Shown: positions 1-15,600 of the stretch, in pieces | Layout: each line of letters opens with the position of its first letter | How positions within the stretch are numbered: the stretch's first letter is position 1 | NCBI GenBank assembly: GCA_017935245.1 | Contig: JAGBHZ010000011.1 | Location: 107,286-171,285, forward strand | Length of the DNA: 64,000 nucleotides | DNA from: Alphaproteobacteria bacterium | GTDB taxonomy: Bacteria; Pseudomonadota; Alphaproteobacteria; Rs-D84 | Direction: 5' to 3' | The notes under the pieces: generated by a model | What the model saw: the letters and a program-made list of their open reading frames with translations, nothing else | Told to the model about the DNA's origin: nothing | Database searches by the model: none | Position numbers and translations under genes: made by a program

Positions 1-1
1 T

Positions 2-313
2 ATTCAACAAAAGCGCGAAGAATTATATATTCAAGCATGTCATGTGTTGATGGAACACGATAAATACTGTCGCGACCACGAATGGCCTAAAAAGTGCAAA
101 GAAATGTTCAATGAATTACAGGGCAAAATGCTGATATATGCATCAAAGAAGATTTATAAACAATATTATGCATTAGATACTGAAATTTGTTCTGTTTATG
201 CTAAAATGAAATCCAAGAAACAACGTGAAGAAATGTCAAACCAGATAGCCGACAAGGTAGAGGCGTTTGCATCAGCAATGCGTAAAGAACTGGGTATAAA
301 AGGAGTGTTATAA
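2..313 (+). CDS. Partial CDS truncated at the 5' end by the window edge. Function unknown. Its stop overlaps the hsdR start (TAATG), which suggests translational coupling. It might be the C-terminus of an HsdS-like or other R-M-associated protein.
   Basis: The frame stays open back to position 2 with no upstream stop. The ATG at 44 is the first Met, and the ORF ends at 313, exactly where the hsdR ATG begins. I recognise no motif in it. Confidence 0.4.
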   Translation: MQQKREELYIQACHVLMEHDKYCRDHEWPKKCKEMFNELQGKMLIYASKKIYKQYYALDTEICSVYAKMKSKKQREEMSNQIADKVEAFASAMRKELGIKGVL

Positions 314-3300
314 TGGCCGGCGATAACCTGAAAGAAATCAATTTAGAAGCAGCAATAGAAGCATATTTGACATCTGATATGGGTGGATATGCCAAGGGTA
401 ATCCGGATAAATTTGACCGTAAATTGGCACTGGATAAAGATACGCTGATTGAATTTGTAAAGAACACTCAACCCAAGGAATGGGAACGCTATACCCAGAC
501 GTATCCAACAAATCCCGAAGAAGTATTTATCGACAGGGTGCACACAGTTATCAAGCAAGCGCCAAAGGGGTTATTGCAAATTCTGCGCACCGGATTCAAA
601 GACAGGGGAATTGAATTCAAGCTGTGTTATTTCAAGCCAGATAACAGCATGAATGAAGCGGATGTAGAACTGTATAACAAAAACATCCTGCATTGCACAC
701 GCCAGTTGCATTATTCGGTATCCAATGAAAACAGCATTGATATTGTTTTATTCTTGAACGGCATACCGGTTGTGTCAATGGAGCTAAAAAACCAATTCAC
801 AGGCCAAGACACATCAAACGCAATCGACCAATACAAATTTGACCGAAATTCCAAAGACACAATATTCGAATTCAAGAACAGGGTGTTTGTGCACTTTGCG
901 GTTGACCTGTATGAAGCGTACATGACAACAAAACTGGATGGTGTAAAGACATTTTTCTTGCCGTTCAATCAGGGTTCAAATGGTGCGGGCAATATCGGTG
1001 GCAAGGGCAATCCAGCAAATCCCGATGGCTTTACAACGTCTTATTTGTGGGAAAAAGTGTTATGTAAAGATATGCTGATGGAAATAATTCAAAAGTATCT
1101 GCACATCCAAATCACACGGAACAAAAAGACCAAGGCAATCGAAAAAGAAACGATGATATTCCCGCGCTATCACCAGTTGGACGTTGTTACAAAATTGGTA
1201 GATGACGTAAAACAAAATGGCGCAGGAAAAAGTTATTTGATTCAGCACAGTGCGGGTAGTGGCAAATCAAACTCTATTGCGTGGTTAGCATATCACCTAG
1301 CAAGCCTACATAACGACCAGAACGAGAAGATATTCAATTCGGTTATCGTTCTGACGGACAGGCGCGTTTTGGATTCACAGCTGCAGGATACGATTACACA
1401 ATTTGACCATACAACCGGCCTTGTTGAGCCAATCAAAGACGGTTCAAAACAGCTGCGCGATGCAATCAACGAAAAGAAAGCGATTATTATTTCAACTATC
1501 CAAAAGTTCCCGATTATTTACAAGGAATTGGTATCTGAAAACAGGTCTTTTGCCATTATCGCGGACGAGGGGCACAGCAGTCAATCCGGTAAGGCCGCAG
1601 CAAGTGTTATTCAGGGTTTAGGCGATACAGAAGAAGAAACACTGAACAAATTTGCCGAACAAGAAGCACAGACCGAAGAAAAAAAAGATGAAGAAATGGA
1701 CACCTTGGAAAACACACTAAAATCCCAAGGTCAGCATGACAATTTATCTTTCTTTGCATTTACAGCCACACCCAAAGCAAAGACACTGAACCGATTTGGG
1801 ACAAGGCAGCCGGATGGGTCATACAAGGCCTTTCACGTGTACTCAATGCAGCAGGCCATAGAAGAGGGATTTATCTTGGACGTATTGCAGAACTATACGA
1901 CATACAAAACATACTACAAATTGATAAAAAAGACAGTAGATGACCCGCAACTGGAATCGGCTAAGGGTGCAAAGGAAATAACAAAATTCCAAACCCTGCA
2001 TCCAACAAATATTTCACAAAAGACAACCATTATGCTGAATCATTTTGTGAATGTTACAGCATCTAAAATCAACGGGCGCGCAAAGGCTATGGTTGTTACA
2101 CCGTCCAGATTGCACGCAGTTCGTTATCTAAAAGAATTCAAAAAGCAGATAGAAAAGAACCAAATCAAGGGTGTAGATGTTCTGGTGGCGTTTTCTGGGG
2201 AATTGAAAGATGCACACGAAACATATACAGAAACTATGCTGAATGTCGATAAGAATGGTGCACATATCAAAGAGACACAGTTGCCGGAATACTTCAAAAA
2301 CGATTTCAACATCCTGATTGTAGCGGACAAGTATCAGACAGGATTTGATGAACCGTTGCTGCATACTATGTTTGTGGATAAGAAATTGAATGACGTAAAG
2401 GCAGTGCAGACATTATCCCGACTGAACCGCACAACCAAGGGCAAGACAGATACATTTGTGTTAGACTTTGTAAATGAACGCGAAGATATCAAAAACTCAT
2501 TCCAAAAGTATTTCCAGCAGACAATTCTTGAAAAGGAAATTGACCCGAATGAATTGTATAAGCTGCAAAGCGTTATAATGGAGGCGCAAATCTGTTATCC
2601 GAATGAAATTGAGCAGTTTGCAGACATCTATTATTCAGGTAAAGAAACAGAAAAAGACCTTGGTAAATTATCATCTATTCTGAAACCGGCCTTGGATAGA
2701 TATAATGTGAAAACACCAGAAGACCAAGATAAGTTTAGAAAAGCACTTGGCAACTTTATCAAAATGTACGACTTTATTATTCAGATTGTCAGACTGATGG
2801 ATAAAGATTTACAGAAGTTCTTTGTTTACGGTAAGTTCCTGCACAAATGTCTGAGAAAAGGCAAATCAGAACGTGTGGATTTATCAAACAAACTAGTTCT
2901 GGAATACATCAAACAAACCAAACAAGAAGAGGGTTCAATCGTACTGGAAGACAAAGTCGGGAAAGCTAAACCTGTAGTAGGCGGAACAGGCAGCAGTACC
3001 AAGAAAACAGAACCCCTGTCAGCCATTATCGAAAAGTTCAACGAGCGCTTTGGAACAAGTTTTTCTGGTGAAGATAAAGTGCTGGAACAGGTTATTGATG
3101 ATATGAGCAAAGACCCGTATCTTGTCATATCAGCACAAAACAAAGATAAAACTGCTTTCAATACCCAATTTGATACAAAGTTCACCGATGTAATGATGGA
3201 CAGACATGCCAAGAATGATGAATTTTTCAAAGAGCTTCTGTCCGACAAAGATAAACTGGATTTCTTGAAAGATATGCTGGTACAGGTTGCTTATAAAAGT

Positions 3301-3315
3301 TTGGGGAATAAATAA
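313..3315 (+). CDS. hsdR: Type I restriction enzyme R subunit (HsdR family endonuclease/helicase)
   Basis: 1000 aa. The N-terminus has a PD-(D/E)xK-like nuclease motif (VDIVLF...ELKN). Helicase motif I is AGSGKSNS and motif II is IADEGHSSQSG (DEAH-box-like). The length is typical for HsdR. No hsdM or hsdS lies downstream in the window. Confidence 0.8.
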   Translation: MAGDNLKEINLEAAIEAYLTSDMGGYAKGNPDKFDRKLALDKDTLIEFVKNTQPKEWERYTQTYPTNPEEVFIDRVHTVIKQAPKGLLQILRTGFKDRGIEFKLCYFKPDNSMNEADVELYNKNILHCTRQLHYSVSNENSIDIVLFLNGIPVVSMELKNQFTGQDTSNAIDQYKFDRNSKDTIFEFKNRVFVHFAVDLYEAYMTTKLDGVKTFFLPFNQGSNGAGNIGGKGNPANPDGFTTSYLWEKVLCKDMLMEIIQKYLHIQITRNKKTKAIEKETMIFPRYHQLDVVTKLVDDVKQNGAGKSYLIQHSAGSGKSNSIAWLAYHLASLHNDQNEKIFNSVIVLTDRRVLDSQLQDTITQFDHTTGLVEPIKDGSKQLRDAINEKKAIIISTIQKFPIIYKELVSENRSFAIIADEGHSSQSGKAAASVIQGLGDTEEETLNKFAEQEAQTEEKKDEEMDTLENTLKSQGQHDNLSFFAFTATPKAKTLNRFGTRQPDGSYKAFHVYSMQQAIEEGFILDVLQNYTTYKTYYKLIKKTVDDPQLESAKGAKEITKFQTLHPTNISQKTTIMLNHFVNVTASKINGRAKAMVVTPSRLHAVRYLKEFKKQIEKNQIKGVDVLVAFSGELKDAHETYTETMLNVDKNGAHIKETQLPEYFKNDFNILIVADKYQTGFDEPLLHTMFVDKKLNDVKAVQTLSRLNRTTKGKTDTFVLDFVNEREDIKNSFQKYFQQTILEKEIDPNELYKLQSVIMEAQICYPNEIEQFADIYYSGKETEKDLGKLSSILKPALDRYNVKTPEDQDKFRKALGNFIKMYDFIIQIVRLMDKDLQKFFVYGKFLHKCLRKGKSERVDLSNKLVLEYIKQTKQEEGSIVLEDKVGKAKPVVGGTGSSTKKTEPLSAIIEKFNERFGTSFSGEDKVLEQVIDDMSKDPYLVISAQNKDKTAFNTQFDTKFTDVMMDRHAKNDEFFKELLSDKDKLDFLKDMLVQVAYKSLGNK

Positions 3316-3380
3316 ATTGTCATAGTGCGGAATTGTTGCGCCACTGAAAGTTCTAATAATCGTAACCCAAGGAACGTTCA

Positions 3381-3566
3381 ATGGCAGTAAAAAGCAACTT
3401 ACATTACAGATGGAAAGACGATAATCTAATCGTGAAACGCAATGGCGGTAAAAATTTGACATTTCCAAAAGCGTTAGGCGCATTTCATAAAGGTGGTGAG
3501 ATAATTGTTATTTCATCACTTGGCAAGAAAATCCGGATTGATAAATTTGGTCATCGGCACTGGTAA
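3381..3566 (+). CDS. Small hypothetical protein, possibly with an AbrB/MazE-like swapped-hairpin fold
   Basis: 61-aa ORF with an AAGGAA ribosome-binding site 8 nt upstream. The pattern NGGKNLTFPKALGAFHKGGEIIVISSLGKKIRIDK loosely resembles SpoVT/AbrB-type antitoxins. No toxin partner is visible, and the 3' end overlaps the convergent Rep-like gene. Confidence 0.3.
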   Translation: MAVKSNLHYRWKDDNLIVKRNGGKNLTFPKALGAFHKGGEIIVISSLGKKIRIDKFGHRHW

Positions 3567-4333
3567 AAATTGCTGATGTATCTGAGCCGCACTTTTTCAA
3601 AAAACACAGTACCCACACCGCACACACACCCCAACATTTTTATCAGGGGTGTTTTTTGATATAATCTTTTTGAAATTTCAACAACGCATTTGGCAAGATT
3701 TACAATCGGTTGTTCTGATGCACTTGTTTCTTGCTCAGATTGTTTTGACAGTCGTTTTATCGGTCTTTTGTGTCTGGTCACCCCAAGTAAAGTGCCGGCC
3801 ATTTCAAGCATGTAAATCGATGTGATTTTGTTGTTTCTGATAAATTCTTTGATGTCATAGTGATATATATTGTCATCAGGGTTTATTTGCCGACAATCAT
3901 ATTCCACCATTAGCCTTTGTGGTTCATAATTGTTTATTTTGGCAAGATGTTTGGCGAATTGTTCGTTGGCATAGTCTAAAGCACATTGTATTTCTTCATC
4001 TGTATATAAATCACCGTTGTGTTTCCTTGCATCCAATAGAATATGACAGTGATATGGGGTGTATGGGTTTTTGTGATTTTCAAAAAACACTACAAAATCA
4101 ACCATTCTTCGCTGCCAATCGTTGGTATCTTTTGTTTTTCTTTTGGTTGTTTGTTTATACTTTTTGTAAATAATTCCTTTTTCGAAATCTAGCATAAACT
4201 GCCGCAGATATCTTTTTGTTGTATCTAAATTTGAACTCTTGATGCAGAATGGTAATTGTAATGACAACGAATGTGTATACCCCTGTTGCGCCAGCCATTC
4301 TGCTATTATTTTTTCATGATTGTTATTATTCAT
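3551..4333 (-). CDS. Putative rolling-circle replication initiator (HUH endonuclease, Rep_1-like), a mobile-element-type gene
   Basis: 260 aa. The motif NPYTPYHCHILLDA matches the HUH motif II of pC194/pUB110-type Rep proteins (PHFHVLIA). A Tyr-rich segment (NIYHYDIKEF) follows roughly 50 aa later. The gene sits between hsdR and tRNA-Val, which is an island-like context. Confidence 0.45.
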   Translation of the reverse strand: MNNNNHEKIIAEWLAQQGYTHSLSLQLPFCIKSSNLDTTKRYLRQFMLDFEKGIIYKKYKQTTKRKTKDTNDWQRRMVDFVVFFENHKNPYTPYHCHILLDARKHNGDLYTDEEIQCALDYANEQFAKHLAKINNYEPQRLMVEYDCRQINPDDNIYHYDIKEFIRNNKITSIYMLEMAGTLLGVTRHKRPIKRLSKQSEQETSASEQPIVNLAKCVVEISKRLYQKTPLIKMLGCVCGVGTVFFEKVRLRYISNFYQCR

Positions 4334-4809
4334 TTGTTCTTTCCTTACTTTGCTTTTGGGTATAAAAATCTATTTGCCGGTTGGCATTGGTAACGGTAAT
4401 TTGAGACCGCAGGATGAACCACACAATACCCAAACACCGGTTTTCGCCATCGTGCGCGCACCTGTACCGTGGAACAAACGCACAATTCGAAGACATATAA
4501 ACAATCAAAACTTTGATTCTTTGCATATCTCTGGCGCACTGAAAAGGCTATGCGTGCATTGTTTTGAAACTCTCTAAAGGCCACTTTTGAGCATTTTCGG
4601 TATTTTTCTATTTACAAACCGCTTTTTTCTGCTATTATAGCCTACGCAAACAGCAAGTTCAGATTCATTGAATTTGATTTGGAGCAATTTTGGAGCATGC
4701 TTTGTAGCATCTTTGGGCATTTCATAGCAGGAAATAGCAACAAAGATACAAACGCCAAAAAAGCCCAATATATTACAAATCTGAATAAAAGCTGTTAGTG
4801 TAAAGTTTT

Positions 4810-4886
4810 GGGTGGTTAGCTCAGTTGGTTAGAGCGTTACGTTGACATCGTAAAGGTCGTTGGTTCGAGTCCAATACCACCCACCA
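4810..4886 (+). tRNA. tRNA-Val (anticodon GAC)
   Basis: Full cloverleaf: acceptor GGGTGGT/ACCACCC, D-arm GCTCAGTTGGTTAGAGC, anticodon stem TTACG/CGTAA with loop TTGACAT, T-arm GGTTCGAGTCC, and an encoded CCA. Confidence 0.93.
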
Positions 4887-4894
4887 GAATAAAT

Positions 4895-4924
4895 AAAAAA
4901 AACCGGCAAAAGCCGGTTTTTTGT
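4895..4924 (+). terminator. Rho-independent terminator downstream of tRNA-Val
   Basis: Hairpin ACCGGC-aaaa-GCCGGT followed by TTTTTTG. Confidence 0.8.
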
Positions 4925-5090
4925 TTGGTCATAAAAGGGGCATGTATTTTTATCTTTACGCGGATAATGATGCGTGTACAGCCGGACAATTGTCATTTTT
5001 TTATAAATATTGCTTTTTATAAAATATTGTCTATAATTGACATCATGCGAATGTACAATTAATCTTGAAAACAAATTCAACGGGAATCTT

Positions 5091-5118
5091 TTGACGCCCC
5101 CGTTGGCGTCGTTTTTTT
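5091..5118 (+). terminator. Hairpin plus T-tract 20-30 nt upstream of the metG start. It could be a terminator or a leader attenuator.
   Basis: GACGCC-cccgtt-GGCGTC followed by TTTTTTT. No coding gene lies upstream on the + strand, so it may end a short leader transcript or act as an attenuator for metG. Confidence 0.45.
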
Positions 5119-5136
5119 AACCAAAGGCAACAAAGT

Positions 5137-7128
5137 ATGGCAAAAAAATATTTAATTACGTCTGCATTACCGTATGTAAATAACAACCTGCATATTGGAC
5201 ATCTGGTGGGGTGCTGGTTGCCATCCGATGTTTATGCACGTTTTTGCCGCGCACGGGGGCGTGATGTATTATATGTATGTGGGGCCGATGAACATGGCAC
5301 AACCAGCGAAATCGGTGCACAAAAAGAAAATATGCCAATCGAAGATTATGTTGATAAATATCGCGCGGCACATGAACAATCGGTGCGTGATTTTAATTTG
5401 TCTTTTGATATTTATGGACGCACACACACAAAAAAACACCATGATTTAATTCAATCGTTATTCACACGCCTGGAACAGGAAAATATGATTGTGGAAAAGT
5501 CTTCTTGGCAGCCATATTCAATTAATGAAAATATGTTCTTGGCCGATCGCTTTGTTATTGGCACATGCCCAAAATGCGGATATGACGGGGCATATGGTAA
5601 CGAGTGCGGAAAATGCGGGGCAACACTGGAACCAGAACAATTAATTAATCCGCACAGTGCGGTTGATGCAACATCACCGGTGGAAATGCGGGAAACAAAA
5701 CACCTGTATTTCCGTACCAGCGCAATGCAAGACAAATTACGTACATGGATTGATTCACGCAAAGGATGGTCAAAAACCGCACTGGCAATTGCAAACAAAT
5801 GGCTGGAAGAGGGGCTGCATGACAGTCCAATCACACGTGATTTAAAGTGGGGAATTCCAGTTAATAAACCCGGATATGAAAACAAGGTTTTCTATGTTTG
5901 GTTTGATGCCCCGTGGGGATACGTTTCAATTTCCCAGGCGGCAAATGAAAACTGGGCCGAATGGTGGCATGGTGGCGATGATGTTGTATATGCACAATTT
6001 ATGGCCAAAGATAACGTTTCGTTCCATTCAATATTTTTCCCCGCCCAAGAATTAGCCATGAACGATAACTGGAAAACAGTTGATATATTAAAAGGGTTTA
6101 ATTTCTTGAACTTTAATGGCGCCAAGATTTCTAAATCAACGGGCAATGGAATTTTCCTGAACGAAGCGATTAATGACGCGCCCGCCGATTGTTGGCGTTA
6201 TGCCCTGATGGCAAGTGCGCCCGAAACCGACGACACAGATTTCACGGTTGCACGTTTTGCAGATATAGTTAACAAAGATTTAAACGGAATGCTGGGGAAC
6301 TTTGTTTCGCGCGTATGTAAATTAACCGCGAAAAACTTTGGCAACAATGTTCCAAATGCGGGTGCGATGGATTCAGGTTTAGAATCACAGATTAATGAAA
6401 AATTGAACGAATTAACATCTGCACTGGACGCATGTGAATTCCGTGCGGCAATTACGGCGTTGCGTGGTCTGTATGCAATTGGAAATGAATACATGACCAA
6501 AATGGAACCGTGGGCACTGGTTAAAAATGGTGATATGGATGCGGCCGGGGCGGTGTTAAATACATGCATGCAATTAATTGATTTATATGCGCGTGTGTCG
6601 GCGCCTTTTATCCCAACGGCGGCAGAAAAAATGCAAAACGTATTTACAACAATCCATGATTTATCTTGGCCAGAAAAATTTGAACGCCGCGTGGCAGACG
6701 GTGCGGAATTTGTGGTGCCGGAAAACATGTTCAATCGTATTGATGAAGAGACGGTTGCACATTTAACCGAAAAATACGCACCCAAAAAGGAAGACAACAC
6801 ACCAAAACCGGTTGTTGCAAAAATCATATCGGTTGAAAATCATCCAACACGTGATGATTTGCATATTTTATCGGTTGATTGTGGTGCAACCAAACCCGTT
6901 CAAATTGTTTGTGCGGCACCAAATGTACGCATTGGATTAACAAGTGTTTTGGCGCCGGTTGGTTGTTTATTGCCGGGTGCAAAAAAACCAATCACACAAA
7001 GAACAGTTGCAAACACTGAATCATATGGTATGATGTGCGGCACCGCAGAATTAGGTATCGGCACAGACGATAAAAACATTATCGAATTGGGCGATGACGC
7101 AATTGTCGGTTCTGAATTTATTAAATAG
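5137..7128 (+). CDS. metG: Methionyl-tRNA synthetase with a C-terminal EMAP/tRNA-binding domain
   Basis: HIGH motif (NNNLHIGHLVG), KMSKS motif (KISKS), zinc knuckle CPKCG...CGKCG, and a C-terminal OB-fold tRNA-binding domain. 663 aa. Confidence 0.95.
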   Translation: MAKKYLITSALPYVNNNLHIGHLVGCWLPSDVYARFCRARGRDVLYVCGADEHGTTSEIGAQKENMPIEDYVDKYRAAHEQSVRDFNLSFDIYGRTHTKKHHDLIQSLFTRLEQENMIVEKSSWQPYSINENMFLADRFVIGTCPKCGYDGAYGNECGKCGATLEPEQLINPHSAVDATSPVEMRETKHLYFRTSAMQDKLRTWIDSRKGWSKTALAIANKWLEEGLHDSPITRDLKWGIPVNKPGYENKVFYVWFDAPWGYVSISQAANENWAEWWHGGDDVVYAQFMAKDNVSFHSIFFPAQELAMNDNWKTVDILKGFNFLNFNGAKISKSTGNGIFLNEAINDAPADCWRYALMASAPETDDTDFTVARFADIVNKDLNGMLGNFVSRVCKLTAKNFGNNVPNAGAMDSGLESQINEKLNELTSALDACEFRAAITALRGLYAIGNEYMTKMEPWALVKNGDMDAAGAVLNTCMQLIDLYARVSAPFIPTAAEKMQNVFTTIHDLSWPEKFERRVADGAEFVVPENMFNRIDEETVAHLTEKYAPKKEDNTPKPVVAKIISVENHPTRDDLHILSVDCGATKPVQIVCAAPNVRIGLTSVLAPVGCLLPGAKKPITQRTVANTESYGMMCGTAELGIGTDDKNIIELGDDAIVGSEFIK

Positions 7129-7144
7129 TGAAAGGAAGTAAAGT

Positions 7145-7465
7145 ATGAGTGATAAAAAATTAAGTGTATATATTAAAACAACACCTTCGTCGATGGGATT
7201 TTTACAGAAACTGGATGTTAATTGCGGGTTCTGTACGTACTGTATCGAAGAAGACCACCCGTTGTGTTTTCATGGGGGCTGTGCGGTTGTTGAATATATC
7301 ACAGACAGAATCGGCAAAGAAAATATTACACACGATGTGAACAACAAACAAAATCCGTCGGTTTCTATTATCGCAAAAAATATAGATTCACTGGGGCGCG
7401 CATACAAAACCGCAACCAAGGCCATTGAATACTGTACCGGTAAAAGTGATACAAAAACAAAATAA
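7145..7465 (+). CDS. Small Cys-rich hypothetical protein (CxxCxxC-x7-C-x4-C), squeezed between metG and queH
   Basis: 106-aa ORF starting 17 nt after the metG stop. Its own TAA stop is immediately followed by the queH ATG. Motif: CGFCTYCIEEDHPLCFHGGC. Confidence 0.55.
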   Translation: MSDKKLSVYIKTTPSSMGFLQKLDVNCGFCTYCIEEDHPLCFHGGCAVVEYITDRIGKENITHDVNNKQNPSVSIIAKNIDSLGRAYKTATKAIEYCTGKSDTKTK

Positions 7466-8011
7466 ATGAATAACGATAAATTGCGTGTTGTTTTATTGTC
7501 TTGCTGTGCGCCGTGTAGTGCGGGCGCAATCAAACAATTAAAAGACGGCGCAATTGAAAACGTTGATGATTTTATCGTTCTGTTTTTTAATCCAAATATT
7601 TTCCCAGAATCCGAATATACAAAACGCATGGCCGAACAAATAAAATACTGTGAATCCATTGGTGCGAAGTATGCCGTTCTGGAATACGATCATGACGGGT
7701 GGCGCGCGGCCGTGCGTGGATTCGAAGATGTGCCCGAACGTGGCGCACGGTGTTCATTGTGCTTTGAATATCGTTTCCGTCGCGCGGTGCGTTTTGCACG
7801 CGAAAATGGATACAATGCAATTGCAAGTGTGTTGGGTGTTTCACGACATAAAGACCAGTCCCAGGTTGACCGTGCGGCCCAAGGCGCATGTGATACCATT
7901 GAATATTTACCCATCAAATGGGATGAAAATCTGCGCATGCAAATAAATCGCAATTCTGATTTTTATCGCCAAAATTATTGCGGGTGTGAATTTAGTATCA
8001 GAAAGATTTAA
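7466..8011 (+). CDS. queH: Epoxyqueuosine reductase QueH (DUF208 family)
   Basis: N-terminal LLSCCAPCS signature and a conserved C-terminal CGCEFS. 181 aa. Confidence 0.8.
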   Translation: MNNDKLRVVLLSCCAPCSAGAIKQLKDGAIENVDDFIVLFFNPNIFPESEYTKRMAEQIKYCESIGAKYAVLEYDHDGWRAAVRGFEDVPERGARCSLCFEYRFRRAVRFARENGYNAIASVLGVSRHKDQSQVDRAAQGACDTIEYLPIKWDENLRMQINRNSDFYRQNYCGCEFSIRKI

Positions 8012-8039
8012 CATACCACTACCCCGTCGCGTTCGCGCC

Positions 8040-8067
8040 ACCCCTTTGCCAGCGAAAGGGGTTTTTA
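8040..8067 (+). terminator. Rho-independent terminator after queH
   Basis: CCCCTTT-gccagcg-AAAGGGG followed by TTTTT. Confidence 0.75.
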
Positions 8068-8144
8068 GTCAATAAATCATTATATTTGCGCTTAGCAAAA
8101 ATCCAGTCTATAATAGGTTTAATAAACATAAAAAAAGGCACATT

Positions 8145-9020
8145 ATGTCATCAATATTTGTTTTCCCCGGACAGGGCGCACAAAGCGTTGGTATGGGAAA
8201 GGAACTTTATGAAACAAATGCAGATGCACGGGCTGTGTTCGATGAAGTTGACACCGCATTGGGTGAAAAATTATCGGATATTATTTTTAATGGTCCGGTG
8301 GAAACACTGACATTAACGGCAAATGTTCAACCGGCAATTATGGCCACGTCCATTGCAATGTTGCGTGCGGCGCGCGCCAAATTACCAGAATATGTCGCGG
8401 GCCACAGTTTGGGCGAATATACCGCCCTGTGTGCGGCGGGCGCATTATCCGTTGGGGATGCGGCAAAATTGTTGCGCGTACGCGGAAACGCAATGCAAAG
8501 CGCGGTGCCGGTGGGCGCAGGGCTGACCGCGGTGATACTGGGGCTGGATATTGATGCGGTGCGCGAAATTTGCAAACAAACAGACTGTGATGTGGCAAAT
8601 GACAACAGTCCAGGCCAGGTTGTTATTTCCGGCATGCGTGATGTGGTTGAACACACAATGCAAATCGCCAAGGAACGCGGTGCAAAACGTGCAATGCCGT
8701 TGGCATTGTCTGTGCCGGTTCATTGTCGTGTGCAAACACCGGCCGCCGACGCAATGCGCGTGGCCTTGGATTTGGTTGAATTACAAAAACCAATCGTACC
8801 AATTATTTTGAATAAAACATGTGAACCAACAACCGATGTTGACGAAATCAAAGAAGCATTGGTGTATCAAATGACACACGGTGTACGTTGGCGCGAAAGT
8901 GTCTTGAACATGGGAAACATGGGCATCACAGAACAAATTGAGGTCGGACCAGGAAATGTTTTAACAGGACTGTGTTCGCGCATAACAGATAAAATAACCG
9001 CAAAGAAGTTGGAGATATAA
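8145..9020 (+). CDS. fabD: Malonyl-CoA:ACP transacylase
   Basis: FPGQGAQSVGMG and the GHSLGEY active-site serine motif. 291 aa. Confidence 0.95.
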   Translation: MSSIFVFPGQGAQSVGMGKELYETNADARAVFDEVDTALGEKLSDIIFNGPVETLTLTANVQPAIMATSIAMLRAARAKLPEYVAGHSLGEYTALCAAGALSVGDAAKLLRVRGNAMQSAVPVGAGLTAVILGLDIDAVREICKQTDCDVANDNSPGQVVISGMRDVVEHTMQIAKERGAKRAMPLALSVPVHCRVQTPAADAMRVALDLVELQKPIVPIILNKTCEPTTDVDEIKEALVYQMTHGVRWRESVLNMGNMGITEQIEVGPGNVLTGLCSRITDKITAKKLEI

Positions 9021-9022
9021 TT

Positions 9023-9751
9023 ATGTTTGATTTATCAGGACGCGTCGCATTAATTACAGGGGCCACCGGCGGTATCGGTGGCGCAATCGCACGTAAAATG
9101 AAGGAAGCCGGTGCAACCGTTGTTGTATCAGGGCGCAATGTGGCAAAAATGGATGCCGAATTTGGTGATGAATATATCAAAATTCCATGTGATTTGGCAG
9201 CCGAAGGTGGTGCGGTTGAATTGGTTATGAACACAATTGAACAGTGCGGCAAAATCGATATATTGATTAACAATGCCGGTATCACACGCGATACATTACT
9301 AATGCGTATGAGTGATGAACAATTTGATGAAGTTATTAATACAAACCTGCGGTCTTGCTTTAAAATGTGCCGTGCGGCAATTATGCCAATGATGAAAAAT
9401 CGATTTGGTCGTATTATTAATATGGCGTCAATCATTGGCACAATCGGTGGCCCGGGCCAGGCAAACTATGCCGCAAGTAAAGGTGGCATGATTGCAATGA
9501 CAAAATCCATCGCCGCCGAGGTTGCATCACGCGGCATTACCGCAAACGCAATCGCGCCGGGCTTTATCAAAACACCAATGACCGATGTTTTATCAGATGA
9601 ATTAAAGAAAACATATCTTAGCCAGATTCCGGCCGGTCGTTTTGGCGAACCAGAAGATATTGCAAATGCATGTGTTTTCTTGGCATCGGATGAGGCCGCA
9701 TATATCAACGGCCAAACATTACATGTAAATGGCGGCATGGGACGGTTCTAG
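9023..9751 (+). CDS. fabG: 3-oxoacyl-ACP reductase
   Basis: TGATGGIGGAIA Rossmann motif, NNAGITRD, and the YAASKGG catalytic Tyr/Lys. 242 aa. Confidence 0.95.
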   Translation: MFDLSGRVALITGATGGIGGAIARKMKEAGATVVVSGRNVAKMDAEFGDEYIKIPCDLAAEGGAVELVMNTIEQCGKIDILINNAGITRDTLLMRMSDEQFDEVINTNLRSCFKMCRAAIMPMMKNRFGRIINMASIIGTIGGPGQANYAASKGGMIAMTKSIAAEVASRGITANAIAPGFIKTPMTDVLSDELKKTYLSQIPAGRFGEPEDIANACVFLASDEAAYINGQTLHVNGGMGRF

Positions 9752-9754
9752 GCA

Positions 9755-11398
9755 ATGCAAAATTATGATGTAATTGTTATTGGTGGTGGACACGCCGGGG
9801 TAGAGGCCGCATCGGCATCCGCCCGACGTGGTGCAAAAACATTGCTGATGACAATGGCGGAAAGTGATTTGGGTGCTTTGTCATGCAACCCCAGTATTGG
9901 TGGCCCCGGCAAATCACAAATGGTGGCGGAAATGTCGGTACTGGGCGGGGTGATGGGACGTGCAGCCGACCGGGCGGGTATTCATTGGCGTACACTGAAC
10001 GCAACACATGGGGCGGCAACCCAGGCATTGCGCGCGCAGATTGACCGCAATTTATATCATGATGCAATTGTTGACATTTTATCAGAACATAAAAATCTGG
10101 ATATAAAGTACGAGGCGGTTTCTGATTTAGATATCAAAAAAAAGACCGTAAATAATGCGTATGCGGCAAAATCAATCGTGTTGACGACCGGAACATTTTT
10201 GCATGGCGTTGTTACACGCGGGGACGAAAAAATATCATCGGGGCGCCTGCAAGATGATGGCACATACCAGGCGGCGGATAAAAATATTTCCGACGTTCTG
10301 CGCGCGGCCGGATTTAAAATTTTAAGATTAAAGACGGGGACCCCTGCACGAATTTATCGTGATTCAATTAATTGGGATGCGTGCGAAATCCAAGAACCCG
10401 ACAGTCCGCATGACTGGTTCGATTTAGGGGATGAAAATAACAATTATCATTGCCCGTGCTATATCACACATACAAATGAAACAACACATAATGTAATTCG
10501 TGAAAATATAAAAAACGCGCCAATGTATAATGGCGACATTGTTGGTACCGGGCCGCGTTATTGCCCAAGCCTGGAAGACAAGGTTATGCGTTTCCCAGAA
10601 CATACATCGCATCATGTTTTCCTGGAACCAGAAGGCTACAACAGCGATATTATTTACCCAAACGGCATTTCGACCAGTTTTGGTCGCGACATCCAAGACA
10701 AATGGATTCGTACAATACCGGGCCTGGAAAACGCGCGTATTGCGCGGTATGGTTATGCAATTGAATATGACGCAATTGATGCACGTGCGCTAAACGATAA
10801 ATTACAAAGCAAAGATTTACCCTACATGTTCATGGCGGGGCAAATTAATGGTACAAGCGGATACGAAGAAGCCGCCGCCCAGGGTCTGGTTGCGGGGGCA
10901 AATGCGGCCGCATATGCGTTGGGAATTGATTACCTGGGACTTGACCGGACAAACGCGATGATTGGTGTATTGATTGACGATATTACAACATTGGGTGTGG
11001 ATGAACCATATCGTATGTTCACATCACGTGCGGAATATCGATTAAACCTGCGCGCGGATAATGCGATTGCACGGTTGGGGGAAATGGGTGTTAGATTGGG
11101 GTTATTATCGGCGGACACATATGAAAAATTATATGATAAAAAACGCGATATAATTGCCGAAAACGATAAATTCTATGCCGGATATATTGCGCGCAATGAA
11201 CGTGAAATTGCCGCGTACAAGCGTGATGCCAACATGAAAATTCCGACGGATTTTAAATATGACAATCTGCCGGGATTAACAAATGAATTAATCGAAAAAT
11301 TAAATACAGTGCGGCCGGAAAATATTGCGGACCTGGCGCGTATACCGGGTATGACACCGGCGGGTATTATGGTTGTATTACGGAAAATAAAAAATTAG
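9755..11398 (+). CDS. mnmG: tRNA uridine 5-carboxymethylaminomethyl modification enzyme MnmG/GidA (shortened, 547 aa)
   Basis: FAD-binding N-terminus (DVIVIGGGHAGVEAA), GPRYCPSLEDKVMRF, TSRAEYRL, and a C-terminal IPGMTPAGI. It is about 80 aa shorter than the E. coli protein. Confidence 0.85.
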   Translation: MQNYDVIVIGGGHAGVEAASASARRGAKTLLMTMAESDLGALSCNPSIGGPGKSQMVAEMSVLGGVMGRAADRAGIHWRTLNATHGAATQALRAQIDRNLYHDAIVDILSEHKNLDIKYEAVSDLDIKKKTVNNAYAAKSIVLTTGTFLHGVVTRGDEKISSGRLQDDGTYQAADKNISDVLRAAGFKILRLKTGTPARIYRDSINWDACEIQEPDSPHDWFDLGDENNNYHCPCYITHTNETTHNVIRENIKNAPMYNGDIVGTGPRYCPSLEDKVMRFPEHTSHHVFLEPEGYNSDIIYPNGISTSFGRDIQDKWIRTIPGLENARIARYGYAIEYDAIDARALNDKLQSKDLPYMFMAGQINGTSGYEEAAAQGLVAGANAAAYALGIDYLGLDRTNAMIGVLIDDITTLGVDEPYRMFTSRAEYRLNLRADNAIARLGEMGVRLGLLSADTYEKLYDKKRDIIAENDKFYAGYIARNEREIAAYKRDANMKIPTDFKYDNLPGLTNELIEKLNTVRPENIADLARIPGMTPAGIMVVLRKIKN

Positions 11399-12042
11399 TT
11401 TGTCTTGCGCGATGGACACCATTTTGCGACCGGGCATTTTTCACAGATTGGTCGCAGTGCCTTGCACACATATCGACCATGTAAAACCATCACATGATTA
11501 ACAATTGGATGGTATTTTTTTGGAATTTTTGTAAGTAATTTTTTTTCGACTTTTTCCGGCGTGTTGTCGGACGCGTCCACCCAACCATAACGATGTGCAT
11601 TGCGGAAAACATGCGTATCCACGCCGATGTTTGGTGCACCCCATAAAACATTACAAACAACATTTGCAGTTTTCTGACCAATACCCGGCAATTGCATTAA
11701 CGCATCACGGTTATGATATTTTTCTGGGAACGTGTCGGTTATATTTTCTGCAACCAATTTTCCCGCCAGTGCAATTATATTCTTTGCCTTGTTATTAAAG
11801 AACGAAATAACACGGATGTGTTCTTTTAACCCATCGATTCCCAACGCTAACATCTTATCTGCGGTCGGCGCCACACGAAATAGGGCGGGGGTAACTTCGT
11901 TCACTTTTTTATCTGTTGCCTGGGCGGATAAAATAACCGCCACCGCAAAGTTAAATTCATTAGTGTGATACAATTCCGACCGAATTGTCATATCAATCGT
12001 CGGTGGCACCAATTCAAAATATCTTTGCGGGGTCATGGACAT
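11395..12042 (-). CDS. nth: Endonuclease III (DNA glycosylase/AP lyase)
   Basis: HhH-GPD motif (LMQLPGIGQKTANVV) and a C-terminal 4Fe-4S cluster loop (CKALRPICEKCPVAKWC). 215 aa. Confidence 0.93.
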   Translation of the reverse strand: MSMTPQRYFELVPPTIDMTIRSELYHTNEFNFAVAVILSAQATDKKVNEVTPALFRVAPTADKMLALGIDGLKEHIRVISFFNNKAKNIIALAGKLVAENITDTFPEKYHNRDALMQLPGIGQKTANVVCNVLWGAPNIGVDTHVFRNAHRYGWVDASDNTPEKVEKKLLTKIPKKYHPIVNHVMVLHGRYVCKALRPICEKCPVAKWCPSRKTN

Positions 12043-12255
12043 TTATTTTTGCTTATATAATTTCGCCAAGATTTGTTCATTTTGCATTTTAACAATTCGC
12101 AGATTGTCTAAAATTGCGTATTCTTCCTTGTTTAAATGTAATTGACGAGAACATGTTCCAAAACTATTGCATTTGCCATTTACTGTTAACAAATCCCTGC
12201 AGATATTTCTGTGATTTTCTGGATAGAAATAGTGTTCACAATATTTGTCGGCCAT
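12043..12255 (-). CDS. Small Cys4 hypothetical protein (a single copy of the G[KR]C[KN] module)
   Basis: 70 aa with four Cys: YCEHY...ICRDL...NGKCNSFGTC. It is packed between the 137-aa gene and nth with gaps of 11 nt and 0 nt. Confidence 0.5.
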   Translation of the reverse strand: MADKYCEHYFYPENHRNICRDLLTVNGKCNSFGTCSRQLHLNKEEYAILDNLRIVKMQNEQILAKLYKQK

Positions 12256-12266
12256 ATTTTTTCCTT

Positions 12267-12680
12267 TTACTTCTGTTTATCTTTATCGCGATGAATAAAT
12301 TGCAACAAACGTGTTACCAATTCCATTTCTGCACTTAAATAGATTCCAAAACCACAGTCTTTTTCACCGGGCATATTTTCATGTAACTTGCATTTGCCGC
12401 CCGGTGTTTGATGCGGACAGTGTTTATCAATTTGACCACAATACAGACCATCTGGATATGTTTTTATTGGCTGTGCGGTTGTTGAAATCACGCGTGGTGC
12501 GCCACTGCGAATATAATACAGGTATTTAATCAGAAATCCCATATCTGGATTTTCAACAACAACCGAATCTGGACATTGTTCCACTTCATCCAATCGTTCG
12601 GTCAATTTGCACCGTCCATCGGACATTTTTTCCGGGCATTTTGTCCCAATATTACCGCAATACAAATATGGGTATTTCAT
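12267..12680 (-). CDS. Hypothetical protein with an internally duplicated Cys4 module
   Basis: 137 aa. It carries two tandem repeats, YLYCGNIGTKCPEKMSDGRCKL...C and GLYCGQIDKHCPHQTPGGKCKL...C. It starts 12 nt downstream of ileS on the minus strand. Confidence 0.55.
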   Translation of the reverse strand: MKYPYLYCGNIGTKCPEKMSDGRCKLTERLDEVEQCPDSVVVENPDMGFLIKYLYYIRSGAPRVISTTAQPIKTYPDGLYCGQIDKHCPHQTPGGKCKLHENMPGEKDCGFGIYLSAEMELVTRLLQFIHRDKDKQK

Positions 12681-12692
12681 ATATTAATCCCC

Positions 12693-15600
12693 CTATGCCT
12701 TTTTAACAGAAATATTCAGATTATATCCTTCGATTTCTGTTGAATATTCGCCGTCGCCTGCAACCATTTCGACAACCAGCGCTTCACGCATGATGCGTTT
12801 TTGATGCTGATTGATTGCATTCACAATTGCCGGATCGCCCGAATATGTTAAAACAATTCTGTCGGATACATCCAGGTTTGCCCCCTTGCGCGTGTCTTGG
12901 ATAAAACGCAGGGCGTCGTTCGCCAACCCTTCGGCAACCAGGTCCGCTGTAACATCTGTATTCAAAACAACAACGGCGGTGTTATCTGGCAATGCCGCAC
13001 CAGTTATTCCCGGTTTTACGTTCAGACGTTTTTCAAATTCATCCATCCCCAGTGTATATTCACCAACGATTAATTTATTATCATCAATCTGGTATTCGCC
13101 ACGTTTAACGGCCGGGATGATTTCTTTTAACGCACCACCCAGACGCGCACCAATTTTTGGCGTAATCAGGTAAATAAATGAATCTGCAACATCATCGATA
13201 TTTTCAATAAATTGAACTTCTTTTACGTTTAATTCATCACGGATGATGTCGGCATATTCGCTTAAATCCGTGCCGGCAATTGTCATGGATGCCAATGGCA
13301 AACGATTACGCAATTTATATTGTTCGCGCAATTGTTTTCCGGTTGATACAATCGATTGTACACGCCGCATTTCAGACAGGATTTTTTTATCAAACTTGTA
13401 CGCGGTCGGAAAATCTGTCAGATGTACAGATTCTGCCCCGGTTAAATTACGATAGATATAATCAGATACAAACGGCGCAAACGGTGCCAGTACGCGACAA
13501 ACCGTCGTCAGTACCGTGTACAGCGTATCAAATGCATCTTGTTCTTCGTCCCAGAAACGCGCGCGTCCGCGACGTATGTACCAGTTGTTCAAGATATCCA
13601 AGAAACGAACAATTTCTTTGATTGCGACGTCGGGTCTGTAATCTTCCAACGTAATTTGAACAACGTGCATCAATACATTTAGTTCCGCCATTATATAATC
13701 ATCCAATGCATTGGTCTTGGCGTATTGTTCGTTATTCTTTGCGACAATGTTGCCTGCATTTGCATAAAGCGTAAAGAAGTGATACGCATTCCACAGCGGT
13801 GTTAAAATTGTTTTTGTTGATTCTGCAAACACTTTGCCTTCTTTATCGACCGGCACTGGTTCTGTCTTCAAGAAATTAGACCCCAGAATAAACAATCGAA
13901 TTGCATCAGCGCTGTATTGTTCAATCTGTGCGCTTGGGTCCACATAATTGCGCAGTGATTTTGAAAACTTTTTCTTGTTTTCATCAACAATCATACCGTT
14001 AACAGATACCGCGCGAAACGCCGGCTTATCAAACAGTGCCGTTGCCAACACCATTAATGCATAGAACCAACCACGTGTTTGATCCTGGCCTTCGATAATA
14101 TAATCTGCGGGGAATGTTGCTTCGAATTTATCTTGGTTTTCAAACGGATAATGCAGTGATGCCCATGGCATAGAACCCGATTCAACCCAGCAATCCAGAA
14201 CATCTGGGATACGTGTCCAACCATCTTTTTCCAATTTATCCAACGTTGGACGATGCAGGTCATCGATTTTCACACCAAAGAATTCTTCGATTTCTGCGAT
14301 TGAACCAAATACTTTGAATTCGCCATCTTTTTCCCAGATTGGCAATGGCATCCCCCAGAAACGATTTCTGGAAATAGACCATGGACGCGCGTTTTCAATC
14401 CACATGCGGAAACGCTCACCGGCACTTGTCCAATTAACCAAATTGTTATTGGCAATTAATTTGTCTTTGATTTTTGGCACGTCAATATACCAAGAATCCG
14501 TCGCGCGTTGGATTAGTTTTTCTTTTGACCGGTCACCAAATGGATAACTGTGCTTGTACTGTTCTTTTTTAACCAGGCGGCCATTTGCTTTTAACCAATC
14601 CAGAATCTTTGGTGTTGCGGCAAAGATATTTTCACCCGCAAAATCCGTTACCGTTTCATCAAAATTGCCATACGTATCAACATTTAATAAAACCGGGAAT
14701 TTTGCATCAATGTTTTTTGCCGCCCAGAAGTCATCTGCCCCATACGCCGGTGCGATATGAACGATACCCGTACCATCGGAATCGGAAACATAGTCCGCCG
14801 GGATAACCTGGAACAATAATTCAGACCCGCCCGCATAGTATGGGAACAGCGGCGTATAATGCATACCGGCCAAATCTGCGCCCGTTACGCGCCCTATTTC
14901 GGTTGCATTTGCGAATTGTTTTTCATATGCCTTCAGACGGCTTTCTGCGACAACATAAACCGCGCCATCGGTGTCCGCCATACGCAGGTATGTCATACGT
15001 GGATTTACCGCCAGCGCAGAATTTGCCGGTAATGTCCATGGGGTTGTTGTCCATGCGATTGCACGGTCGCCGTTTTCCAGTTCAAACCAAACCGTTACCG
15101 CATCATCAACAATTTCGCGATAATCCTGGGATGCTTCGGAATTTGAAACAACCGTACCGTTCACCCAGTCGTATGGATTAACACTGTAATCTTTATACAA
15201 CAGACCCTTGTCATACAAAGACTTTAATGTCCACAACATGGATTCCATATAGTTTTTATCCATGGTTTTATAACCATAATTATCACCAATATCGACCCAG
15301 CGCCCCATACGTGCGATAAATTTTTCCCATTCTTTGGTGTATGTCATAACGTCTGTGCGACACATATCACAGAATGCGGCGATACCATCATCTGCCACGA
15401 TATTTTTTGCAGATTTTCCAACCTTTTTTTCGACCGAGTTTTCCGCCGGCAACCCATGGCAATCCCACCCCAGTTCGCGGTTAACATAACGCCCCGACAT
15501 TGTCTGGAAACGCGACACCATGTCTTTGACAACACTAACACCCAAATGCCCCCAGTGTGGCAAACCATTTCCAAACGGTGGCCCATCATAGAAAGAAAAC

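Follow-up and report, generated by a model that had tools for sequence, protein, structure and literature searches.

The integrative islands of the Islander catalogue occupy tRNA genes (tDNAs) and combine an internal tyrosine integrase adjoining an attachment (att) site with an intact tRNA gene and a same-orientation fragment of it; 159 of the 3,919 tDNA islands have a 5′ fragment, versus 3,760 with a 3′ fragment (PMC4383910; Hudson, Lau & Williams 2015). Integrative and mobilizable elements (IMEs) commonly encode proteins resembling rolling-circle replication (RCR) initiators, which possibly serve both transfer and maintenance (PMC5704250), and the RCR-initiator-related relaxases of streptococcal IMEs belong to Rep_2/PF01719, PHA00330 and MobT/Rep_trans (PMC5704250, PMC5357655). 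Here, we analyzed a 64-kb stretch of alphaproteobacterial DNA (contig JAGBHZ010000011.1; the whole stretch is referred to as the window), whose left end carries hsdR, a gene for a 61-amino-acid (aa) protein, a gene for a 260-aa protein resembling HUH nucleases of the Rep type (the Rep-like protein) and tRNA-Val. Our results indicated that this left end represents the tRNA-proximal part of a small mobile island in which restriction-modification (R-M) and other defence genes are carried as cargo.

Both as a tDNA-integrated island and as an IME-like element that has an RCR-type protein, the element belongs to known kinds. Like the Islander islands, it has an internal tyrosine integrase adjoining att in its complete relatives, an intact tRNA gene plus a same-orientation fragment, and an identity block that ends in the anticodon stem-loop; unlike most of them, the displaced tRNA piece is the 5′ part. 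Its small size, its tyrosine integrase, an HUH/RCR-type protein as the sole DNA-processing enzyme and variable passengers including R-M genes are shared with the streptococcal IMEs, among which integration into tRNA genes, as seen here, is common. In contrast to those elements, it resides in an alphaproteobacterium rather than a Firmicute, its HUH protein belongs to a different, unclassified family and no coupling protein of the TcpA type was recognized beside it. The less common traits of the element are the 5′-fragment configuration with an island-borne promoter, the unclassified HUH subfamily and the conserved 61-aa partner protein.

RESULTS

The left end of the window and its tRNA target

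To place the window among its relatives, we used related contigs and metagenomic loci (L001 to L019); the contigs of the relatives were obtained from clusters of homologues of the 260-aa protein and from a scan of species genomes, which contributed one Candidatus Enterousia metagenome-assembled genome (MAG) and one unclassified alphaproteobacterial MAG. A preliminary description of the window, made from its letters, had proposed an island beside tRNA-Val that carries defence functions and an HUH Rep-like gene. This proposal was borne out by repeats of the tRNA gene, by empty target sites and by the different levels of similarity of the island and its flanks. In all four full-length contigs (L001 to L004), tRNA-Val positions 1 to 42 recur as a direct repeat at the two limits of the island, with 100% identity over 42 to 50 nucleotides (nt). 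The two copies of the repeat are spaced by 6,564 nt in L001, 10,849 nt in L004, 10,852 nt in L003 and about 11,004 nt in L002, and the complete relatives are 6.5 to 11 kb in size. The displaced tRNA-Val fragment has the same orientation as the intact tRNA and is located beyond the integrase gene and a gene for a 77-aa protein, such that each of the four contigs shows the Islander-type arrangement of an intact tRNA gene, a same-orientation fragment and a tyrosine integrase between the two. The intact-tRNA end of the island, as seen in the window, is 89 to 94% identical to these four loci. We take window positions 1 to ~4851 to be the part next to the tRNA of a site-specific integrative island of small size (~11 kb).

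The preliminary description had suggested looking for direct repeats of the 3′ end of tRNA-Val. A repeat does exist, yet it consists of the 5′ part of the gene, and therefore the island sits upstream of the intact tRNA-Val. Lying there, it must bring a promoter plus the first 42 nt of the tRNA, and the intact tRNA-Val has a 5′ part from the island and a 3′ part from the chromosome. The identity block runs from a few bases 5′ of tRNA-Val through the anticodon loop to the 3′ strand of the anticodon stem, and the junction between island and chromosome falls inside it (Table 1). Given these limits of the block, the crossover most likely occurs in the anticodon loop.

Eight independent contigs share a common order, which is tRNA-Val, the Rep-like gene, the 61-aa gene, cargo, a gene for a protein of ~177 aa, the integrase gene (int) and the 77-aa gene. 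The integrase of the relatives is of the tyrosine type, with Phage_integrase, Phage_int_SAM_3 and Arm-DNA-bind_3 domains, and its gene adjoins an att copy. At the same far end, the ~177-aa protein gave a weak match to the Cro/C1-type helix-turn-helix (HTH) domain (XRE-like), and the 77-aa protein gave a weak match to HTH_17. No integrase gene was found by tblastn anywhere in the window.

One further feature was noted near the att core of the complete islands. At L003:19955-20050, and at the equivalent positions of L001, L002 and L004, a sequence resembling a ribosome-binding site (RBS), CAAAACAAAAGGAATAAAAAATG, precedes a mini-open reading frame (mini-ORF) of 24 codons that runs into the att core and terminates there. 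The same CAAAACAAAAGGAATAAAAAATG is nearly identical to the RBS-like sequences 5′ of the ~177-aa gene and the Rep-like gene.

Empty target sites and spread between hosts

Unoccupied sites were surveyed in seven metagenomic loci retrieved with metG (L012 to L018), and the island genes were absent from all seven. The gene order is accB-accC-tRNA-Val-metG in L012 and L016 and mreB-tRNA-Val-metG in L017, and accC and mreB are the same genes that flank the far end of the occupied sites. The ORFs directly upstream of tRNA-Val are of housekeeping type, being pnp and ybaB in L013 and gyrB in L018, and nothing from the island lies upstream of tRNA-Val in L014. Related genomes with the tRNA-Val-metG flanks but no island genes thus exist, in agreement with what the preliminary description had envisaged for a mobile element.

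Some loci depart from this simple picture of the target. In L015 (5795-6675), tRNA-Val is encoded on the strand opposite metG, and about 700 bp, including a weak methyltransferase-like ORF, separate it from mreB; here, the target site is locally inverted or rearranged. In L009 (4865-9389), an OmpA-like gene, a sigma-70 family gene, DUF2659 and PQQ_2 genes and one gene without assignment lie between metG and tRNA-Val with its island, and therefore the target tRNA is not always linked to metG. A degenerate second remnant of tRNA-Val, comprising positions 1 to 56 with 86 to 91% identity and with mutations in the D-arm and the anticodon, was detected at L002:14583-14640, between the native promoter and the att copy, and at L016:9711-9767, where it lies 29 nt 5′ of the intact tRNA at an otherwise empty site. 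The remnant resembles a scar left by an earlier event at this target, in which the crossover may have been in the T-loop.

The island and its flanks differ in their degree of divergence between genomes. Pairwise DNA identity amounts to 92 to 94% for hsdR versus 70 to 79% for metG, and synonymous divergence (dS) is 0.18 to 0.28 versus 1.5 to 1.7. In comparison with L002 to L004, the island itself is a mosaic, with 92 to 94% identity in the R-M block, 86 to 94% in the last 200 bp before the tRNA and ~70% in the Rep-like gene. As for base composition, which the preliminary description had proposed to compare, the tetranucleotide distance of positions 1-4800 from the rest is the largest in the window (0.030, versus 0.0085 to 0.020 for the other 4.8-kb segments), whereas the GC content of 0.388 is ordinary and does not single out the island. 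These comparisons indicated that the island has spread recently between diverged hosts.

The ratio of nonsynonymous to synonymous divergence (dN/dS) is 0.18 to 0.20 for the Rep-like gene and 0.03 to 0.045 for hsdR. For the 61-aa gene, it ranges from 0.035 to 0.08 when the three closer copies of the island are compared and is 0.18 for L008, the most divergent one. Since all three genes are under purifying selection, the island is not decaying. The suggestion of a decaying element was therefore abandoned; dN/dS is 0.03 to 0.2 overall, and the relatives retain intact att sites, the integrase and the small HTH gene.

A probable HUH nicking enzyme

The Rep-like protein belongs to a very small family. 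Its homologues form 8 clusters in 5.8e9 proteins, a profile search of 1.84e9 representative proteins gave only 16 matches, and a second homologue search with a wider alignment added one protein. Three motifs can be recognized in it: motif I, T20-H-S-L-S-L-Q26; motif II, H95-C-H97-I-L-L, which is part of the TPYHCHILL stretch already pointed out in the preliminary description; and motif III, Y159-D-I-K162-E. Across 22 sequences, Q26, F50, F80, E85, H95, H97 and K162 are invariant, and T20, H21, Y159 (at least 90%), I98 and L99 are near-invariant, even though the identity of the 260-aa protein to the distant members (P0010 to P0021) is only 22 to 31%. The motif of Y159 is located 62 residues C-terminal of the HUH motif, and this order, with His before Tyr, is that of Rep-type enzymes and differs from that of relaxases.

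The distant relatives, of ~150 to 250 aa, provided the connection to a described family. Eight of the nine proteins in a sub-alignment match PF23343 (REP_ORF2-G2P) at an E value of ≤0.01, three of them above the gathering cut-off. When the island family was aligned with this PF23343-matching group by hhalign, a probability of 99.3% and an E value of 4.5e-20 were obtained over 150 columns, with the three motifs in register and Y159-D-I-K162-E aligned with the YCxKE of the group. The Rep-like part of the island claim is upheld by this profile-profile homology; the anticipated hit to an HUH-family profile was not obtained directly and was replaced by the indirect link through the intermediate group. 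Motif order and spacing (T-H-x-L-x-x-Q, H-x-H-I-L, Y-x-x-K-E) are likewise those of PF23343. Unlike PF23343 proteins, the 260-aa protein has no direct Pfam match at E ≤1 and, compared with the distant relatives, contains a 14-residue basic insertion (residues ~57 to 72) and a C-terminal tail of ~75 residues, for which the structure prediction is of low confidence. Its genetic setting also differs, in that the Rep-like gene lies on an integrase-bearing island without phage structural genes. From these comparisons, it is very probable that the 260-aa protein is a nicking enzyme of the HUH type and that its subfamily is new, small and distantly related to PF23343. A literature search on the family name REP_ORF2-G2P returned nothing.

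In the low-confidence structure model, the order of the secondary structure elements is compatible with a nuclease domain of ferredoxin-like fold in which a strand bears the HUH motif. Fold comparison of the model retrieved IS200/IS605 TnpA from the PDB at E values of 0.08 to 0.45 and, as the few named matches from a viral library and with low TM-scores throughout, microvirus replication initiators (Rep/VP4) and parvovirus NS1. Despite the weak TnpA matches, an IS200/IS605-type transposon was rejected, because TnpB is missing, element ends are missing as well, and the position of the gene within the integrase-bounded island is fixed. The protein had also been placed in the pC194/pUB110 class (Rep_1). 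It does resemble Rep_1 in having HxH followed by hydrophobic residues and a downstream Tyr. Unlike Rep_1 members, it matched neither Rep_1 nor any other Rep profile at E ≤1, and tblastn against plasmids, including the 72,556 plasmids of PLSDB (E ≤1), gave no match, so that this class assignment was dropped.

Two loci with distant relatives were inspected further. In L011, a gene for an N4/N6 methyltransferase lies beside a distant Rep-like gene, whose product is 26% identical to the 260-aa protein. In L019 (IMGVR_UViG_7000000633_000399, 4523-14285), a distant Rep-like relative that scores 25.7 bits against PF23343 has two tyrosine integrases on one side and, on the other, a block of C5, N4/N6 and Dam-type methyltransferases and an ICEA-family (NlaIII-like) nuclease. 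This suggests that HUH elements with an integrase and R-M systems may form a wider lineage.

A conserved 61-aa partner

The 61-aa gene is present in every island copy, and its homologues form two clusters, being as narrowly distributed as the Rep-like protein. In L011, the Rep-like gene is enclosed by two homologues, which are 47 and 36% identical. Since the pairing persists there at 26% identity of the Rep-like proteins, the two genes form a conserved module.

The 61-aa ORF had been considered AbrB-like. No match to the protein was found in Pfam, NCBIfam, PHROGs or PADLOC (for two family members, with a threshold of E ≤1 in Pfam and NCBIfam). Its AlphaFold2 model, with a predicted local distance difference test (pLDDT) score of 80.4, consists of six strands and no helix, and no AbrB, MazE or SpoVT chain was present among the top 50 PDB matches obtained with Foldseek. 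Thus, we rejected an AbrB/MazE/SpoVT-type protein. The best structural match was Helicobacter pylori IceA2, at a non-significant E value of 0.17; as a curiosity, L019 carries a gene of the ICEA family.

Defence genes as exchangeable cargo

As had been described, hsdR is full length: its 1,000-aa product contains HSDR_N, ResIII/SWI2_SNF2 and T1R_D3-like domains (Pfam), matches REase_I of PADLOC at 2.4e-33 and scores 204 bits against TIGR00348, under the cut-off of 285 bits. The first ORF and hsdR indeed overlap by 1 nt, their stop and start codons being joined in the TAATG within GTGTTATAATGG at 305-316. The gene had further been called an orphan. It is true that tblastn found neither hsdM nor hsdS in the window, yet this is uninformative, since the operon is cut by the window edge. 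In the R-M-bearing relatives, the operon order is hsdM-hsdS-143aa-hsdR, and the hsdR of the window shows 92 to 94% DNA identity to the genes that follow hsdM-hsdS in L002 to L005 and L009. The 103 residues encoded by the first ORF are near-identical to the C termini of the 143-aa proteins of L002 and L005, and the nucleotide similarity (92 to 94%) to the five relatives extends to base 1 of the window. Thus, hsdR appears to be an orphan because the window starts inside the 143-aa gene, and its orphan state is best read as an edge effect; a gene at the edge of a window should not be labelled in this way.

A type I R-M operon with an additional gene, prrC, between hsdS and hsdR is known from the prr locus. 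The island operons resemble it in having a non-R-M gene at this place, here translationally coupled to hsdR through the TAATG overlap. Unlike PrrC, the embedded 143-aa product is a predicted membrane protein rather than an ATPase or an anticodon nuclease. It has an N-terminal hydrophobic segment, its gene overlaps hsdS (in L002, the gene occupies 8348-8779), and no recognizable domain was found in searches of Pfam, NCBIfam, PHROGs and PADLOC. Two paralogues of 144 and 151 aa are encoded at L008:14051-14925, and the same locus has a gene for a 233-aa protein between hsdM and hsdS. All of these proteins could act as partners of the type I system, of an accessory or abortive-infection type.

The cargo slot is occupied by an R-M operon in most copies of the island, to which L005 and L006 add an AAA_14/DUF4143 gene and L008 adds two small genes. 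L001 has no R-M operon and carries in the middle genes for an Imm_superinfect protein, a multi-pass membrane protein and an AAA_14/DUF4143 protein. The AAA_14/DUF4143 ATPase matches the PADLOC candidate defence family PDC-S01 with an E value of 1e-161 (L001:12264-13577; L005:18507-19820). Together with the Imm_superinfect gene that stands in place of R-M in L001, these matches imply that the slot swaps defence genes.

Putative attachment arms and promoter-like elements in the spacer

Between the Rep-like gene and tRNA-Val lies a spacer that, according to the preliminary description, might hold an origin. Its non-coding character was confirmed; its content reads as an att arm and a promoter region rather than as an origin. 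Positions 4602-4809 are conserved across the aligned loci (n = 8), even where the Rep alleles are ~70% identical. Either side of the att core has one copy of the repeat TTTGGAGCAATTTTGGAGCA..TTTGTAGCA (4678-4709 in the window), both copies being located ~100 nt into the island and sharing one strand, and the 20-mer TTTGGAGCAATTTTGGAGCA has exactly two occurrences in the complete islands L001 and L002 and none in the empty-site loci. Exact copies of the 9-mer TTTGGAGCA were found twice in the window, both at 4678-4697, and degenerate copies of this type are present at 4585-4593 and 4712-4720. As the integrase has an arm-binding domain, we read these repeats as putative arm-type integrase sites of attP. 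Rep iterons were considered as well and are probably not represented by the TTTGGAGCA repeats, which are symmetric about the att core and accompany an arm-binding integrase.

At the empty site L012, the native promoter of tRNA-Val, TTGCAA-N16/17-TATAAT, ends 11 to 13 nt 5′ of the tRNA, and in L001 to L003, this promoter precedes the displaced 5′ tRNA fragment. The island of L008 places TTGCAA-N16-TATAAT before the intact tRNA. In the window, the position of the native promoter is taken by TTACAA-N17-TAGTGT, which was absent from the output of the promoter scan. The sigma-70-like match TTTACA-16-TATTAT further upstream is stronger, with 10 of 12 consensus positions matched, and is invariant in seven of the eight loci. 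The spacer must also hold the promoter of the Rep-like gene, and it may hold an origin.

With regard to inverted repeats, one conserved example exists at 4491-4530, its arms being conserved and its loop variable between loci. It was rejected as an origin hairpin, since it folds no better than shuffled sequences (z score of 0.32).

DISCUSSION

We consider it likely that the left end of the window belongs to a tRNA-Val island of a Candidatus Enterousia-like gut alphaproteobacterial host and that the island moves by excision and HUH nicking. The integrase, probably together with the 77-aa protein, would bind the core and the TTTGGAGCA arm repeats and excise the island as a circle; the likely roles of the 77-aa and ~177-aa HTH proteins are those of a directionality factor and a regulator, respectively. 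In the excised circle, the ~177-aa (XRE-like) gene, int, the 77-aa gene, attP, the spacer and the Rep-like gene would lie on one strand. The HUH protein would then nick one strand at a site probably located within 4334-4600, using Tyr159 and a metal site formed by H95 and H97, and the nick would lead to rolling-circle replication of the excised form and/or to single-strand transfer by a helper. The R-M cargo would protect the host and disfavour loss of the island.

Several points weigh against this explanation. The window comprises one end of the island, and its own hsdM, hsdS, integrase and far att copy were deduced from the relatives; neither a circular form nor excision or transfer was seen. 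Likewise, the analysis identified no helicase, no coupling protein, no packaging gene and no helper element, and conjugative elements were not looked for. For the 260-aa protein, a direct profile match was lacking in Pfam, NCBIfam, PHROGs (E ≤1) and PADLOC; a PDB sequence search with the 22-sequence profile gave nothing at E ≤10, and neither the protein nor one distant relative was matched by tblastn in phage or plasmid records. Members of the island family were not found in IMG/VR contigs either. The structure model of the protein has a pLDDT of only 56.8, which we attribute to the shallow alignment, places Tyr159 on a strand and gave no PDB fold match at E ≤0.001. In the spacer, no origin, nick site or stable hairpin was found, and the TTACAA-N17-TAGTGT element before tRNA-Val is weak by consensus.

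What the island does with its HUH protein could be explained differently. If the protein is a relaxase that nicks an origin of transfer (oriT), the island would be a strict IME, mobilized via a co-resident conjugation pore, which we regard as possible, albeit on the unlikely side. Streptococcal IMEs very often use putative relaxases related to RCR initiators, and the two roles are not cleanly separable (PMC5704250). The small size of the island, which has int and the 77-aa HTH protein but no transfer apparatus of its own, would fit such a lifestyle, and recent spread between diverged hosts needs some transfer route; however, no coupling protein, relaxosome accessory gene or oriT was recognized, with no dedicated search made for them, and PF23343, the closest profile family, is described as a replication protein of phages. 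Because RCR-like proteins of IMEs may do both (PMC5704250), we treat initiator and relaxase as versions of one biochemical mechanism. The same PF23343, which is named for the replication proteins ORF2/G2P, could instead point to a phage satellite or to the remnant of a filamentous (inovirus- or plectrovirus-like) prophage that spreads with a helper phage. In bringing together int, a small HTH protein, an XRE-like regulator and Rep, the island resembles satellites in its architecture, the weak named fold matches include microvirus replication initiators, and one distant Rep-like relative resides on an IMG/VR contig. Nevertheless, the called genes of the eight island copies include no Zot/pI-type ATPase and no coat, packaging or capsid-related gene, the island family has no match in phage records or IMG/VR, the Rep-like and 61-aa proteins match no PHROG, and the variable genes are defence cargo, all of which makes a phage-derived element improbable.

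A more radical objection is that the 260-aa protein is not an HUH enzyme at all, that its H-C-H is coincidental in, e.g., a DNA-binding or regulatory protein, and that the island moves by the integrase and passive transfer. The missing profile match, the low-confidence model, the nonsignificant PDB folds and the missing origin could all be cited for it. We hold this to be very improbable given the hhalign result (99.3%, E value of 4.5e-20) against PF23343-matching proteins and the motifs in register, with H95, H97 and K162 invariant over the 22 sequences. Finally, the segment could be native chromosome, with hsdR as the solitary remnant of a decayed R-M system. The finding of the same genes at the same position in several related genomes, which the preliminary description would have taken as a sign of native DNA, is literally true, and GC content is not distinctive. 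Yet the genes recur at this position because the element integrates site-specifically, and the att repeats, the empty sites, the island identity of 93% versus ~70% for metG, the hsdM-hsdS genes upstream in the relatives and the strong purifying selection on hsdR render native DNA scarcely credible.

The window contains one end of a small mobile island that is precisely delimited and, as it appears, active; its host lineage consists of uncultured gut alphaproteobacteria. Type I R-M and other defence cassettes travel in it as cargo, and the hosts between which they are exchanged have diverged far more than the island has. It is also a clean case of the minority 5′-fragment type of tRNA integration, in which the element must carry the tRNA promoter. 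A tiny protein family (~8 clusters in 5.8 billion proteins) is here assigned, as a very probable member, to the Rep-type HUH enzymes, and a new profile model could start from it. One may further speculate, with considerable doubt, that the HUH protein and its 61-aa partner define an unrecognized lineage of integrase-bearing rolling-circle elements that mainly shuttle R-M and other defence cassettes between bacteria; the idea is based on the pairing of Rep-like genes with methyltransferase or restriction genes in the Enterousia islands, L011 and L019. On this reading, the ~177-aa gene, int, the 77-aa gene, attP and the Rep-like gene become collinear in the circle, such that replication or transfer could be turned on only once the island is excised, and during integration an island promoter would take control of the host tRNA-Val.

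Other features of the window

The features at the left end of the window are compiled in Table 1.

Table 1. Annotated features at the left end of the window, with window coordinates
Feature	Position	Strand	Remarks
Partial ORF, 103 codons	2..313	+	3′ part of the gene for a 143-aa predicted membrane protein; frame open to base 2
hsdR, type I restriction enzyme R subunit, 1000 aa	313..3315	+	Island cargo
61-aa ORF, predicted all-beta protein	3381..3566	+	Convergent with the Rep-like gene; 3′ ends overlap by 16 nt
260-aa HUH (Rep-type) nuclease-like ORF	3551..4333	-	Contains TPYHCHILL
Non-coding stretch, 476 bp	4334..4809		No credible ORF; island end, read as the equivalent of one attP arm
Sigma-70-like promoter match TTTACA-16-TATTAT with extended -10 TG	4611..4638	+	Points toward the arm sites and the tRNA
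Putative integrase arm-type sites	4678..4709	+	Repeats TTTGGAGCA, TTTGGAGCA, TTTGTAGCA; spacing 11-12 nt
Island-borne promoter-like element TTACAA-N17-TAGTGT	4773..4801	+	Ends 8 nt 5′ of tRNA-Val
att identity block, tRNA side	4802..4851	+	8 nt upstream plus tRNA-Val positions 1-42
Intact tRNA-Val(GAC), integration target	4810..4886	+	ARAGORN and Rfam; same tRNA in all related loci
metG	5137..7128	+	Terminator-like hairpin between tRNA-Val and metG

Two observations concern the surroundings of metG and a relative of part of its product. Between metG and queH, an ORF at 7145-7465 encodes a 106-aa protein with no domain match; across the related loci, the small ORF at this place varies in length (101 to 183 aa) as well as in sequence, and its neighbours are conserved. 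At 33077-33451 on the minus strand, tblastn revealed a 127-aa product that is 40% identical to the C-terminal tRNA-binding domain encoded by metG; presumably, it is a separate tRNA_bind-domain protein or that domain inside another protein.

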